IMG/VR virus record: IMGVR_UViG_2681813320_000022 | DNA: 4,346 nucleotides | Strand: one strand, 5' to 3' | DNA from: a virus | Lineage: Duplodnaviria; Heunggongvirae; Uroviricota; Caudoviricetes | In this document: positions 1-4,346 of the stretch, one piece after another | Position numbering within the stretch: position 1 is the stretch's first letter | How the letters are laid out: every line of letters starts with the position of its first letter | The notes under the pieces: model-generated | Seen by the model: the letters and a program-made list of their open reading frames with translations, nothing else | The model's database searches: none | What the model was told of the DNA's origin: nothing | Position numbers and translations under genes: made by a program

Positions 1-103
1 GAGTTGATGGCTCATGATGTCCCTCTGGGATGCGCTCCGGATGAATATGATGATCTCATATCAGGAACTTGTTCGCACCTTCCTTAGTTAGTGTGGCTTT
101 TAG

Positions 104-355
104 TCAAGTAAGATGACGTCTTGGTCTCGCTGATGCCTGGCGCTCAATCCAGCGATCAATTTCTTCCAGGTTGTAAAAGCATGGACTGTTATCCCATGGC
201 ATACCGTCATGAGCGACATGCTTATATTCCCTTCCTTCCATAAACGATTTTTCCCGGGCCTTTTTTAACGTACCTTTTTTTATTCCTTTCAGCGCAATTA
301 ACTGCTCTTCGGATACCCATTTGCCGGGAGAGACAATCATGATTACTTCGCTCAT
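104..355 (-). CDS. xis: Excisionase-like small DNA-binding protein (Xis / recombination directionality factor family)
   Basis: 83-codon ORF ending in TGA. From the sixth residue (MIVSPGKWVSEEQL...) the protein aligns by eye with lambda Xis: Trp at position 8, basic helix region, and a GREY motif (MEGREYKHVA versus lambda KDGREYLFHE). It lies directly downstream of the exonuclease gene on the same strand and upstream of a probable int start, the canonical exo-xis-int order. The true start may be the internal ATG at 340..338; both candidate starts have weak purine-rich SD. Confidence 0.6.
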   Translation of the reverse strand: MSEVIMIVSPGKWVSEEQLIALKGIKKGTLKKAREKSFMEGREYKHVAHDGMPWDNSPCFYNLEEIDRWIERQASARPRRHLT

Positions 356-384
356 CGATTTCTTTATCTCTTACATCAGACGAG

Positions 385-416
385 CGCCGGTTGCAGAATA
401 CCAGTCACAACCGGCG
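385..416 (-). repeat. GC-rich inverted repeat (9-bp arms CGCCGGTTG / CAACCGGCG, 14-nt spacer) in the exo-xis intergenic region
   Basis: Arms at 385..393 and 408..416 are exact reverse complements. It sits 12 nt downstream of the exo stop and about 30 nt upstream of the xis start. No U-tract follows on the minus-strand transcript, so it is not a canonical intrinsic terminator. Confidence 0.45.
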
Positions 417-427
417 ACAGTTGAACA

Positions 428-2461
428 TTAAGAATCAGCCTGACTCGGGATCAGTTTTTGCCAGATAACTGAAACGTATTTTGCCTGGTAACGGGCGTCA
501 TCAAGTGCATTATGGCGCTCACCTTCGAATGGAATAGCCGTTCTGGCATCGAAGTCTATGGCTTTCCCCAGCTCAACGATTGTGCGTACATCGCGATCGT
601 TGTAGTAACGCCACGGGCAGGGGATCCCCTGCCGTTCGTATGAACGGCGCAAAATCGTGTTGTCGAAGTTGGCTCCATTTCCCCAAACCTGAACAAAAAA
701 TTCACCGGAGTTTTCGTCGATAAATTCTCGCAATTGTAACAGTGCATCATCTAACGGGATTTCATCGGTCATAATGGCAGATTGCGCTTCGCGTGATTGC
801 TTAAGCCACCATTTAATGGTGTCCCGATCAATGACTCCGCCAGCAGTTTCCAGATCGATAGTCTTACTAAATTCCGGTCCCATATCTCCGGTTTGCGGAT
901 CGAAAAATATTGCACCTATTGAGATGATCGGGGCATCAGGATTTTTTCCCATGGTTTCAAGGTCGATCATTAGATGGTCACACGTCCTGCTGGTGGATGT
1001 GATTTCGTGATGACTGTTCACCTTAATTGGGTGATCTGCCGTCTCGCCAGTTTCATTATCGCTATTGTGATGCTGATTGCCGCCAGTGTTCTCCTTGTGT
1101 GGATGTTCAGCGCCTTCCATTTCCTCCGGATCATCTTCCTGAACTTCAACCTGATACTCTTCATCGAATGTTTCTTGGTATGTTGCGTCGCCCATCACCG
1201 CGCCACAATCAGGGCAGTTGCCGCCGCCGGTCTGACCGCAGGCGGTGCAGACTTTTTCCACTTCCTGTTGCGCTACTGGTTCAGGCTGTTTCGTTTCTGG
1301 CTCGTTTTGTAACGCATTTGGACTGTTTTGTTCCGCTTTTTGGTAGTTCCGTTCCGATTCATGCTGGTTCTGGTTCACAGAATCGCGGGTCTGGAGCCCC
1401 TTAACCCATTTCGGATCATTCGGGTCACTAATCCCTTCAACAAATTCACCACGTGATGCAGCAAGCAACTTATCGGCGTCAGGCTGGCTGATATTGGCTG
1501 CCTGCATAATTTTGTTTACTTCGTCAGCGGTAACTTTTATCGGCTCTGGTTGTTCTGAATCTTCAGCGGTATCTACATTTTGCGGTAAGCCCGTGTATGT
1601 GCCATTTTTTCGGGCAAAATATTCTTCTTTTGTGATTTCAGTGGCGCCAGCAGCCAGTGCCTTATCCAGACCAGAGAGTTTGTTTGCGCGACCGTATTTT
1701 TCTCCGTCCTTATCTGCGAAGAGGAAATAGAACGGCCCCTCACGCTCTACAGATGGTTCAGCTTCCGGCGCGGTTTCATTTTTTGGGATATCAGATACCT
1801 CAGTTTCCACTGCATCAGTTTGTGTTTCTGATGACTGGAGAACATCAACAGTGCCCAGGTCTGTTTCTTCATTCTCAAACACGCCCTTTGTCGTCAGGTA
1901 TTCGCAGATATATTTGTTCAGTGCTACGGGATCTTTGTGAATGTCGATCGGACGCTCACGGACAAGGCCAAAAATAGTTTGGCGGTCGTAGCGAAGGGCA
2001 TCAGGCTGTTTGCGCATTGATGCCGAGATACGCTTCCAGTCTTCGCGGTCGTTGTCGATAACTTCTTTTTTTGCCCAGCGATGGATGCTGCCGTCAATGT
2101 TTCCGGCATCCACATCACTAGGCCAGAGAGCGTAGGCCAGTTCGTCATCCAGTGTTTTCCATGTCTGCTTGTATTCGCGATGAATGGCAGCAATGACCGG
2201 GCTGATTTTTCCTGTTGAATTTTCAGTGTACTGTTGATTGGCTCTGGCGCGGGCGAGATCAACAACAGACGTGTATTTTCCGGTTTCCTTGCGTTCACCT
2301 TCGCGACGTTTTTTCCAGATGCGCATCTCTGCCTGAATTTCGGGCCATTTAGCACCAGGAATACATTTATGCTTAACCCACCCAATGGCGTGCAACTTAA
2401 GCTCCGGATACGGGTTATTCCCCTCTGAACAGGCGCGTAAGGACTGGCAAAACGCCCGCAA
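428..2461 (-). CDS. Prophage exonuclease: C-terminal DnaQ-like DEDDh 3'-5' exonuclease domain, central CxxC-x7-CxxC zinc ribbon, acidic/His-rich linker, N-terminal domain of unknown function
   Basis: Uninterrupted 677-codon frame ending in TAA at 430..428. All DEDDh motifs are present in order: Exo I MIDLET (D500/E502, nt 956..964), Exo II VWGNGANFD (D600, nt 662..664), Exo III HNALDD (H650 nt 512..514, D655 nt 497..499). Zinc ribbon CTACGQTGGGNCPDCG at nt 1205..1249. The annotated start at 2461 is TTG; the real start may be internal (TTG at 2395 with GGAG SD, or ATG at 2326), so the 5' end is uncertain. Confidence 0.8.
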   Translation of the reverse strand: MRAFCQSLRACSEGNNPYPELKLHAIGWVKHKCIPGAKWPEIQAEMRIWKKRREGERKETGKYTSVVDLARARANQQYTENSTGKISPVIAAIHREYKQTWKTLDDELAYALWPSDVDAGNIDGSIHRWAKKEVIDNDREDWKRISASMRKQPDALRYDRQTIFGLVRERPIDIHKDPVALNKYICEYLTTKGVFENEETDLGTVDVLQSSETQTDAVETEVSDIPKNETAPEAEPSVEREGPFYFLFADKDGEKYGRANKLSGLDKALAAGATEITKEEYFARKNGTYTGLPQNVDTAEDSEQPEPIKVTADEVNKIMQAANISQPDADKLLAASRGEFVEGISDPNDPKWVKGLQTRDSVNQNQHESERNYQKAEQNSPNALQNEPETKQPEPVAQQEVEKVCTACGQTGGGNCPDCGAVMGDATYQETFDEEYQVEVQEDDPEEMEGAEHPHKENTGGNQHHNSDNETGETADHPIKVNSHHEITSTSRTCDHLMIDLETMGKNPDAPIISIGAIFFDPQTGDMGPEFSKTIDLETAGGVIDRDTIKWWLKQSREAQSAIMTDEIPLDDALLQLREFIDENSGEFFVQVWGNGANFDNTILRRSYERQGIPCPWRYYNDRDVRTIVELGKAIDFDARTAIPFEGERHNALDDARYQAKYVSVIWQKLIPSQADS

Positions 2462-2480
2462 AAAACTCTCGAGGGCAAAG

Positions 2481-2651
2481 GTGAAGAAACCTGCTGTGGT
2501 TGATCCGGACCTTATCTGGTCATCACCTGACGGAGAAATACGTCGCTACGACAGTCGCCTAAACATAATCTGTCGCGAGTGCCGGAAGAGCGAAGTTATG
2601 CAGCGCATACTGGCTTTCTATCAGGGTAATTTTCAGGACGTGGCGCAGTGA
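2481..2651 (+). CDS. Small hypothetical protein (57 aa from GTG; frame is open back to ATG 2385, which would give 88 aa)
   Basis: GTG at 2481 is preceded by GAGGG (2471..2475) with a 5-nt spacer. The TGA stop (2649..2651) overlaps the GTG start of the next ORF (GTGA at 2648..2651), a translational-coupling arrangement. The ATG at 2385 lacks an SD and would overlap the 5' end of the exo frame on the opposite strand. Confidence 0.4.
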   Translation: MKKPAVVDPDLIWSSPDGEIRRYDSRLNIICRECRKSEVMQRILAFYQGNFQDVAQ

Positions 2652-3004
2652 GTGCACCGGCAACCATTCTTGATATGTGCTGTGGCAGCCGCATGTTCTG
2701 GTTCGATAAGTCTGACGAACGGGCGATATTCAGCGATATCAGAAAAGAAGGATACACATTACGCAATGGGAGACGCTTGATTATCAGCCCTGACATTATC
2801 GCAGATTTTCGTGCATTATCATTTGCAGACGCATCTTTTTCGATGGTTGTATTAGACCCTCCGCATCTTGAGAGTGTTGGTGATAACGCCTGGATGGGAA
2901 AGAAATATGGACGGCTGAATAAAGATGCCTGGCGTGATGATTCGCGACAGAGATTTAAAGAAGCCTTTCGGGTGTTGAGGCCGCACGGCGTTCTGATTTT
3001 TTAA
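2648..3004 (+). CDS. SAM-dependent DNA methyltransferase-like protein (motif I then motif IV, gamma-like order), short and probably truncated or interrupted
   Basis: 118-codon ORF with motif I-like ILDMCCGS (nt about 2669..2692), catalytic motif IV DPPH (nt 2855..2866) about 60 aa later, and a RVLRPHGVLIF strand typical of the Rossmann methyltransferase fold. It stops at TAA 3002..3004, after which the same frame is open for 29 more codons to TAA 3092..3094. No C-terminal target-recognition region is present. Confidence 0.55.
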   Translation: MSAPATILDMCCGSRMFWFDKSDERAIFSDIRKEGYTLRNGRRLIISPDIIADFRALSFADASFSMVVLDPPHLESVGDNAWMGKKYGRLNKDAWRDDSRQRFKEAFRVLRPHGVLIF

Positions 3005-3237
3005 TGGAATGAAACGCAAATACCGGTAAGCCAGATTCTGGCACTGACAGACAGAAAACCTGTTATCTGTCAACGAACAGGGAAAAAACGATAAAACCCA
3101 CTGGATTATTTTTATGAAAGAGGCATCCAGTGAGTAGATTCGTAAGGCTACAGATACGTATATCTGAATAATTAAATTCAGTTCTGTAAATAAAATTTAA
3201 TCCTTAACCGGATGGATTTCTGCACCCTCAGAACATC

Positions 3238-3266
3238 AGGAGGCCGCCCGAAAGGGCGGTAGTGAA
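3238..3266 (+). promoter_or_regulatory. Structured ribosome-binding site: AGGAGG, then a 6-bp GC stem with GAAA tetraloop, then 7 nt to the ATG
   Basis: AGGAGG at 3238..3243; stem CCGCCC (3244..3249) / GGGCGG (3254..3259) with GAAA loop (3250..3253); ATG at 3267. Linear SD-to-ATG spacing is 23 nt; with the hairpin folded it is about 7 nt. Confidence 0.45.
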
Positions 3267-3377
3267 ATGCGAAAGTTCAAAATTATTATTGAAACGGGAA
3301 TAGCTGGTGGAGATTTTGAGGATGTATTCGAAGTGGACGATGACGCAACACCTGAGGAAATTCATGACGGAGCATAA
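3267..3377 (+). CDS. Small acidic protein, 36 aa (MRKFKIIIETGIAGGDFEDVFEVDDDATPEEIHDGA)
   Basis: ATG start served by the structured RBS above; TAA at 3375..3377. Eleven of 36 residues are Asp/Glu. The frame stays open for 23 further codons after the TAA, up to TGA 3447..3449. Confidence 0.4.
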   Translation: MRKFKIIIETGIAGGDFEDVFEVDDDATPEEIHDGA

Positions 3378-3441
3378 GAAATTTTCTTTAACTACTGCAA
3401 TTACTCATACCACGAAATAAAAGACGATGAGGAAGAACAAA

Positions 3442-3618
3442 GTGGCTGATTTTTGTTCAGCTAAATATAACATCAGTTTTGAAGAGCGGGATGAACTATT
3501 AATGGACTATGGTGAGTTACGCGGTGGAAGTGCTGCTGATGTCGAATCCTAGCGTGATGACTATGAAGCGGGAAAAACTCCGGTCGAAGCATATTGTGAT
3601 GAGTGGGGCGATGAATGA
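3442..3618 (+). pseudogene. Small acidic ORF with an in-frame TAG at 3550..3552: 36 codons from GTG 3442 (41 from ATG 3427), then 22 open codons to a TGA that overlaps the next start
   Basis: GTG 3442 is preceded by GAGGAAG with a 6-nt spacer. After the TAG the frame has no stop and no internal start for 22 codons and ends in an ATGA overlap with the ATG at 3615. This is either a nonsense-interrupted gene or a 36-41 aa gene followed by a chance open frame. Confidence 0.3.
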
Positions 3619-3902
3619 GCGAGATTAATTATCAGGAAGGGCATGAAACGGCGGGGCAAGCAAAACCAGTGGCATGGCGATATCGCTACGTGAAAAAAGG
3701 CGTTACGGACTTTCAGGGGAAGTAGTGGTCTGGTGACTGGAAATATGTACCGAAAAAAGAGGATTGTAACGACAGGCCGAACTATCAAATTCAGGCCTTA
3801 TTCACTGCCTCACCAGTCCCAGTTACATCAGAAGAACTGGTTAAAGCTGTGCACTTTTATGAACAACTAAAACGCGAAAATCCACCAACATCCGGCAACT
3901 AG
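3615..3902 (+). pseudogene. Hypothetical protein gene with an in-frame amber at 3723..3725 (36 codons, TAG, then 58 open codons to TAG 3900..3902)
   Basis: ATG 3615 overlaps the upstream TGA (ATGA). The 58 codons after the TAG have no in-frame ATG, GTG or TTG. They read as ordinary mixed protein (WSGDWKYVPKKEDCNDRPNYQIQALF...), whereas the alternative frame ORF at 3745..3870 is Lys/Arg-rich as expected for an out-of-frame read. Confidence 0.4.
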
Positions 3903-4145
3903 ATTAATGGATTAACTATGTCGGTTAAACGACCAGCCAACTGAAAAAGCGGAAACCTGATTACAGGTTGCCAGATAAGGCAATGAGCTACCTGGCGCGG
4001 AACGGACTGATAAGTATGGGGAATGTTTTACGATGAACCTTTAGACTAAAGAGTTTGTAACGCTATGTAAGTGATTTTTTCTGGTTTAGATATTTATATG
4101 TCCGGCCAAATTGAGGTGTGTTTAAATGTAATTGCACATTGATTG

Positions 4146-4152
4146 TAGGAGG
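4146..4152 (+). promoter_or_regulatory. Strong Shine-Dalgarno (TAGGAGG) for the ORF starting at 4157
   Basis: TAGGAGG at 4146..4152, 4-nt spacer, ATG at 4157..4159. Confidence 0.5.
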
Positions 4153-4156
4153 AATA

Positions 4157-4252
4157 ATGAAAAACGCATTGCAGTTTTTGTTTGTTGCGTTCTGGTTGTT
4201 CGCATCATGTATGCCCATCATCTTCACAGCGGTAATGACTCCAACTTATTGA
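4157..4252 (+). pseudogene. 5' fragment of a gene encoding a protein with a hydrophobic N-terminus (MKNALQFLFVAFWLFASCMPIIFTA), disrupted by IS1 insertion
   Basis: Strong SD plus ATG. The first 24-25 codons (4157..4230) are host or prophage sequence; from 4231 the frame continues into the IS1 terminal inverted repeat and stops at TGA 4250..4252 inside IS1, so the native 3' portion is displaced. Confidence 0.45.
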
Positions 4253-4346
4253 TAGTGTTTTATGTTCAGATAATGCCCGATGACTTTGTCATGCAGCTCC
4301 ACCGATTTTGAGAACGACAGCGACTTCCGTCCCAGCCGTGCCAGGT
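4231..4346 (-). mobile_element. IS1 insertion sequence, right-end inverted repeat plus 3' part of insB (partial; continues beyond the window)
   Basis: 4231..4253 GGTAATGACTCCAACTTATTGAT is the IS1 terminal inverted repeat. The following 93 nt match, from memory of the well-known IS1 sequence, the reverse complement of the IS1 right end (...CTGCATGACAAAGTCATCGGGCATTATCTGAACATAAAACACTATCAATAAGTTGGAGTCATTACC). Confidence 0.9.
4246..4346 (-). CDS. insB: IS1 transposase InsB, C-terminal end (partial; 5' part lies outside the window)
   Basis: The minus-strand reading ends ...[29 protein letters not shown] with its TAA stop at 4248..4246 inside the terminal inverted repeat, as in canonical IS1. Confidence 0.8.

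Follow-up and report, generated by a model that had tools for sequence, protein, structure and literature searches.

The described systems closest to the locus reported here are the decay of cryptic lambdoid prophages such as Qin, the lambdoid region of the nin/ea type, trpL-type leader peptides and attenuators, and bacterial genes that carry in-frame stop codons. In the nin/ea-type region, compact accessory genes overlap one another in the interval from the replication genes to Q, and we take the position of our gene cassette to resemble it. For bacterial in-frame stops, it was proposed that they are tolerated and act as dampers of expression (Belinky et al. 2021, PMC7918605).

The window, i.e., the whole stretch of 4,346 nt that was analysed, carries three short frames in a row. 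They had been pointed out in a reading of the sequence alone, and both the sequence and the list of its open reading frames (ORFs) bear them out:

3267-3377, + strand: ORF 1, from ATG 3267 to TAA 3375-3377, 36 sense codons
3442-3552, + strand: ORF 2, from GTG 3442 to TAG 3550-3552, 36 sense codons (41 if counted from ATG 3427)
3615-3725, + strand: ORF 3, from ATG 3615 to TAG 3723-3725, 36 sense codons

Starts as well as stops of the three ORFs are spaced 175 and 173 nt apart. We consider it highly probable that these frames are the stumps of three unrelated phage genes, each with a nonsense mutation of its own, in a decaying prophage of the Qin type, and that the shared index of their stops is coincidental. 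Genes 1 and 3 are already marked as pseudogenes by RefSeq and PGAP.

Prophage setting and upstream elements

Positions 81-4346 of the window are 100% identical to an E. coli chromosome (megablast against complete E. coli genomes). In chromosomes of the window type, ynfA, rspA and rspB adjoin, followed by integrase and excisionase genes, and ISNCY, ydfW and flxA lie on the far side. A less deleted copy (L001) carries dicB, dicA and dicC upstream as well as relBE, hokD, rem, ydfU and an antiterminator gene downstream. We identify the window as the remnant of a cryptic lambdoid prophage of the Qin type, heavily degraded and located beside rspB in E. coli. The following features lie around the three frames:

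2400-2419, no strand: deletion joint, at which a 5'-truncated exonuclease gene (- strand) is fused head-to-head to a C-terminal DUF977 fragment (+ strand)
2648-3004, + strand: truncated class I SAM-dependent methyltransferase gene, with TAA 3002-3004 as codon 119 (K119*)
3164-3266, + strand: conserved leader of the cassette
4230-4346, no strand: end of an IS1 inserted 3' of the cassette; an IS1A transposase is annotated just beyond it in a 100%-identical genome

At the deletion joint, PGAP labels both the exonuclease and the DUF977 gene as "incomplete; missing N-terminus", and the phage matches switch at 2403-2411. Compared with L001, the whole dicB-dicA-dicC-ydaT-replication segment is gone from the window. 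At the other end, genomes without the IS1 match to position 4230 only, and the alignment with phage vB_EcoS-640R1 (640R1) also breaks there. A small hydrophobic ORF with a good Shine-Dalgarno (SD) sequence (4157-4252, MKNALQFLFVAFWLFASCMPIIFTA...) is cut by the IS1 at 4230 and continues in 640R1.

Homology to the methyltransferase runs on past the TAA to about 3120, with a frameshift near 3085. The metagenome locus L193 reads AAA at 3002 and has an uninterrupted methyltransferase ORF of approximately 157 aa to its first stop. PGAP annotates the gene as "frameshifted; internal stop" in strain CFSAN064036, while many RefSeq records give the 118-aa product as intact (WP_001310834.1). The region 2648-3120 is a pseudogene. 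Of practical relevance for these records is that the supposedly intact 118-aa protein is a truncated fragment. In a consensus scan, the TAA at 3002 was found to sit within a terminator-like hairpin with a T-run (2970-3003).

The leader is nearly identical across loci with differing upstream genes. It carries an inverted repeat, CTGAAT-N6-ATTCAG (3164-3181), the motif GGAGGG at 3210-3215, which reads GGATGG in the window, the motif CCCTC at 3225-3229, and a strong SD, AGGAGG (3238-3243), 23 nt from ATG 3267. A hairpin with a GAAA loop (3244-3259) lies between the SD and the ATG; it is present in the minimum-energy fold and in the consensus fold, which is weak evidence. The consensus fold contains one compensatory pair, and compensatory variants occur as single ones only, GCCACCC..GGGTGG in three loci and GAGTG..CACTC in one locus. 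Two pairing partners are conceivable for the CCCTC motif, the SD and the GGAGGG that precedes it, and the predicted pairing suggests a possible translational control. An Rfam search gave no match, and a scan for terminator-like sites on the + strand between the three units found none; known RNA elements, attenuators and terminators between the units were rejected on these grounds.

Three overlapping genes and their codon 37

In their intact state, the three frames belong to longer, overlapping genes:

3267-3449, + strand: gene 1, a DUF7167 / phrog_1997 pseudogene; 60 codons when intact, TAA 3375-3377 is codon 37
3442-3618, + strand: gene 2, a pseudogene of phrog_519, a family without known function; 58 codons when intact, TAG 3550-3552 is codon 37
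3615-4036, + strand: gene 3, a multiply damaged pseudogene of phrog_660; codon 37 is TAG 3723-3725
3693-3698, + strand: A6 run in gene 3; the commonest related allele has A8, a +2 frameshift

Intact copies of the cassette are found in the phages 640R1, vB_Apl-pPE4 and ArgO145 (L002, L003 and L004). In all three copies inspected, the annotated genes overlap and their starts are spaced at 175 and 173 nt. According to these records, gene 1 encodes 57-60 aa, gene 2 encodes 58 aa, and gene 3 encodes 119 aa or more; in ArgO145, the third position is taken by a different gene of 211 aa. Genes 1 and 2 overlap by 8 nt and genes 2 and 3 by 4 nt (ATGA), an arrangement that would allow translational coupling. 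The start spacing is fixed at 175 and 173 nt because two small genes of nearly equal size are packed with overlaps, and the equal spacing of the starts is thus a conserved property of the cassette and not a matter of chance. The sequence-only reading had proposed a comparison of spacing and stops in homologous loci. Of the two, the start spacing is kept, but the stops after 36 codons are absent and sense codons are found instead, an outcome which that reading had itself named as a refutation. As had also been stated before, the three units are not similar to one another: blastp yields a best E of 0.13, blastn finds words of 7-8 nt only, none of this is significant, and a tandem duplication is ruled out.

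The record of vB_Apl-pPE4 (PP818812.1, L003), an Actinobacillus phage, holds an E. coli lambdoid cassette at approximately 90% nucleotide identity, together with Ead/Ea22-like and Hok genes. Its attribution to the host Actinobacillus pleuropneumoniae looks odd.

With codon 37 repaired to Lys, gene 1 scores 51.6 bits against Pfam DUF7167 (gathering cut-off 24.4) and covers profile positions 1-60 of 60; it matches phrog_1997 with E = 1.6e-29. The lesion is a change of AAA to TAA (Lys37*), and RefSeq/PGAP annotates the interval as "DUF7167 family protein, internal stop". A literature search for DUF7167 found no papers.

Gene 2 matches phrog_519 with E = 1.6e-13, and its lesion is a change of TGG to TAG (Trp37*). 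All intact homologs read ATG at 3442, where the window has GTG. This is in good agreement with the earlier preference for GTG 3442 over ATG 3427, and the one homolog that was aligned base by base reads GAAGAGG at the latter site. Position 3442 is accordingly the ancestral start of gene 2, and the change from ATG to GTG is a further lesion of the window lineage. Phage records annotate the intact gene as a 58-aa protein (RefSeq WP_000753058.1), while window-type RefSeq genomes carry no annotation of it at all, which means in practical terms that a pseudogene at 3442-3618 has been overlooked in these genomes.

Gene 3 matches phrog_660 with E = 3e-66, and its intact homologs have 119 or 171 aa. 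Compared with these forms, the gene in the window lacks approximately 30 codons 3' of ...RENPP. It furthermore carries a second in-frame TAG at 3900-3902, where homologs read CAG, and a frameshift near 3935, and the ancestral frame closes at TGA 4034-4036. PGAP labels the interval "hypothetical protein; frameshifted; internal stop". At codon 37, a sense codon, probably TGG, was changed to TAG. The mutations behind the three stops are of differing types: A to T in gene 1, G to A in gene 2, and probably G to A in gene 3. As to the function of the three proteins, our searches led no further than DUF7167 and PHROG families to which no function is assigned; NCBIfam holds no family for them, and PDB gives only weak matches to designed proteins.

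In place of the A6 run of the window, L002, L011 and about 30 other loci have A8, which forms an in-frame heptamer, A_AAA_AAG. A -1 slip at this heptamer would bring back the conserved downstream frame of gene 3. Codon 37 of the A8 alleles is mostly TAG, and TGG in three of them (L009, L023 and L034). In PGAP annotation the A8 allele is a pseudogene with a frameshift, and phage records show it as an out-of-frame ORF of 85 aa.

The survey of codon 37 took in 85 loci, of which 80 are contigs from IMG/VR and the others are records of phages and of E. coli. Wherever a locus not of the window type extends across the codon, it reads AAA in gene 1 and TGG in gene 2. In gene 3, TAG occurs in 32 loci (two window-type loci excluded), CCG in 15, ATG in 12, CAG in six, TGG and TCG in three each, and CTG in two; in the remaining ten, this position is missing or another gene takes its place. 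Each of the three stops of the window is thus matched by a sense codon in intact homologs. The seven codons observed in gene 3 are all of the form NNG, which makes this position unusually polymorphic; it falls within a variable segment (residues 29-40), and three of the sense codons are one step away from TAG.

The stops do not travel together. In the common 640R1-type haplotype, gene 3 carries both TAG 3723 and TAG 3900, with A8 instead of A6, and genes 1 and 2 are intact. The window is 97-98% identical to this haplotype in gene 3, compared with 88-91% in genes 1 and 2. Because the 640R1-type shares the gene 3 stops while its genes 1 and 2 are intact, the stop of gene 3 has a history different from that of the other two. 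Conversely, the metagenome contigs L186 and L193 combine window-type genes 1 and 2, including both stops, with a gene 3 whose codon 37 is TCG or ATG. In L193, gene 3 is an intact ORF of 171 aa; in L186, another in-frame stop follows further downstream.

Window-type alleles with sense codons were searched for with IUPAC patterns in IMG/VR, metagenome contigs and GTDB genomes. IMG/VR yielded no such allele of gene 1 or 2, the scan of metagenome contigs returned recombinants only (L186, L193, L196 and L198), and the genome scan returned a single window-type locus, from Shigella flexneri. All 47 window-type loci from IMG/VR have stops at every site covered, as do most of the 27 window-type loci from metagenomes and genomes; in two window-type loci, one per collection, the TAG of gene 2 has changed to TAA, i.e., from stop to stop. 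No allele was found in these collections that confidently parts the stop of gene 1 from that of gene 2, the sole candidate being L198, which is perhaps chimeric.

Two of the recombinants show a finer mosaic. L196 is of the window type with a patch of roughly 30 nt that restores CCG at codon 37 of gene 3. L198 combines a 640R1-type 5' part of gene 2 with a window-type 3' part, has TAA at codon 37, and differs in its gene 1. The two metagenome contigs are short (L198 has 1.2 kb) and could reflect gene conversion or chimeric assembly.

Among the E. coli records that match 3267-3902, 505 do so at >=99% identity, 13 at 95-99%, and the remainder at approximately 93% or below. By these values, the stop-bearing haplotype is one tight clade, set apart by a gap in identity. 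Its occurrence at >=99% identity in about 500 records shows persistence, not function.

Origin of the three stops

In the reading that we hold to be highly probable, the locus is a cassette of three unrelated small accessory genes, which in intact phages have 60, 58 and 119-171 codons and overlap one another. In the window haplotype, a separate point mutation at codon 37 would have silenced each of them, and the 36-codon frames would be the N-terminal stumps of the resulting pseudogenes. The identical index of the stops would then be a coincidence laid over the real and conserved spacing of the starts. The surroundings are degraded as well: further lesions are the GTG start of gene 2, the additional damage to gene 3, K119* in the methyltransferase gene, the deletion joint and the IS1. 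We infer that neutral drift or selection for silencing fixed the stops, and that the locus makes no biologically important product.

How much chance does this reading demand? A single substitution can turn 24 of the 60 codons of gene 1 into a stop, as well as 23 of the 58 codons of gene 2 and approximately 40% of those of gene 3; among random substitutions, about 4-6% have this effect. Compared with the consensus of intact alleles, gene 1 of the window differs at 17 positions and gene 2 at 20. At a rate of 4-6%, it is not surprising that genes no longer under constraint have acquired one stop each. The shared index is a different matter. Under a model of one independent nonsense hit per gene, the probability of the same codon index in all three genes is approximately 1-4e-4, and that of three stops within 2 codons approximately 2-4e-3. 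For the identical index, coincidence is the best explanation; it is real, but it was noticed post hoc, in a scan for any regularity. A common cause is disfavoured because the stops have separate histories, and no mutational or structural cause for a periodicity of roughly 174 nt was found. The sequence-only reading had held that equivalent stop positions in successive genes are not to be expected from random nonsense decay. This argument is not supported, given that homologs have sense codons at position 37 and that the stops occur in differing combinations among haplotypes; coincidence, which it had listed among its explanations, is the best reading of the shared index.

Polymorphism within the stop-bearing clade amounts to 12 nonsynonymous and 7 synonymous changes, plus one change from stop to stop, compared with 26 nonsynonymous and 38 synonymous changes among intact alleles of genes 1 and 2. 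With few sites and little power, the ratio of 12:7 is compatible with neutrality (P = 0.12 against an expectation of 77%) and agrees poorly with the intact ratio (P = 0.04), but the two ratios do not differ significantly when compared directly (Fisher's test, P = 0.12). Downstream of the stops there are three nonsynonymous and three synonymous polymorphisms, all in gene 3, which are too few to be judged. Taken together, the ratios lean to relaxed constraint and are not decisive.

Neutral fixation is not the only route to such a haplotype. If the genes were costly or toxic in a grounded prophage, nonsense alleles may have been selected; the shared index would still be a coincidence. It speaks for such adaptive silencing that none of the genes from the methyltransferase through gene 3 is free of a disabling lesion, that the haplotype is as widespread as the 505 records indicate, and that the most common related haplotype, phage records among it, has a defective gene 3 too. 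We nevertheless regard it as rather unlikely: nothing observed here indicates toxicity, and the number of stops per gene, as calculated above, is near the neutral expectation.

Much less probable in our view is that the stops are tolerated or regulatory, with the genes expressed at a low level by readthrough and the stops acting as dampers in the sense of Belinky et al. (2021, PMC7918605). According to that article, dN/dS stays below 1 for many of the in-frame stops that are conserved. Genes 1 and 2 would fit in so far as each has a single stop and is otherwise open to its normal end, and the alleles at codon 37 of gene 3 include TAG along with its one-step neighbours CAG, TGG and TCG. Against this, the stops differ in kind (TAA, TAG and TAG) and in their flanking codons (GCA TAA GAA, TCC TAG CGT and AAG TAG TGG), and the full set is confined to one clade of >=99% identity, other lineages having sense codons. 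Readthrough could not rescue gene 3, which has also suffered a deletion, a second TAG and a frameshift, and gene 2 has lost its ATG. On the window branch, the protein of gene 2 has accumulated 10 amino-acid changes in 58 residues, while it is almost invariant among the other homologs, and the ratio of nonsynonymous to synonymous changes within the clade fits neutrality. A related and even more doubtful idea is that the cassette is kept at a very low, readthrough-dependent expression, or is toggled off and on by changes between stop and sense codons, with codon 37 as a position where a stop is tolerated.

Fixed-length leader or regulatory peptides of 36 aa, or a programmed termination that regulates downstream genes, both put forward in more general form in the sequence-only reading (the latter together with readthrough), can practically be dismissed: equal length and spacing coincide in this one haplotype only, the homologous frames have 58-171 codons in all other lineages, the stops are absent from homologous loci and are followed by no terminator or antiterminator on the + strand and no Rfam family, and the peptides are the N-terminal parts of DUF7167, phrog_519 and phrog_660 proteins.

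Comparison with known systems

By our preferred reading of three separately inactivated genes, the biological weight of the locus is small. It provides a clean example of how a fixed gene packing and independent nonsense mutations can imitate a designed periodicity.

With programmed readthrough and the bacterial in-frame stops treated in PMC7918605, the window shares a recognisable coding sequence around the stops, which in the case of genes 1 and 2 stays open beyond them. It differs from them in that its stops belong to one clade and have no common context, additional lesions are present, and no purifying selection is detectable in the few polymorphisms. The likeness to trpL-type leader peptides and attenuators is limited to short ORFs that precede other genes, whereas their length is not conserved, no attenuator structure is found, and the ORFs are truncated from longer proteins.

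A further system for comparison is the lambdoid region of the nin/ea type. Like that region, the cassette is a run of short genes, three in number, which overlap by 8 nt and by ATGA, with a strong SD and a conserved leader ahead of the first of them, and it lies between replication, DUF977 and methyltransferase genes on one side and hokD, rem, ydfU and the antiterminator gene on the other. It differs in that its genes belong to uncharacterised families (DUF7167, phrog_519 and phrog_660) and are inactivated in the window.

The decay of cryptic lambdoid prophages, with Qin as the example, matches in location and in the neighbours rspB, integrase/excisionase, DUF977, ydfW, flxA, relBE and hokD. 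The manner of decay is the same as well, with deletions, IS insertions, and nonsense and frameshift lesions in accessory genes. Within this picture, the window is odd in one respect only: all three adjacent genes have their first stop at codon 37.
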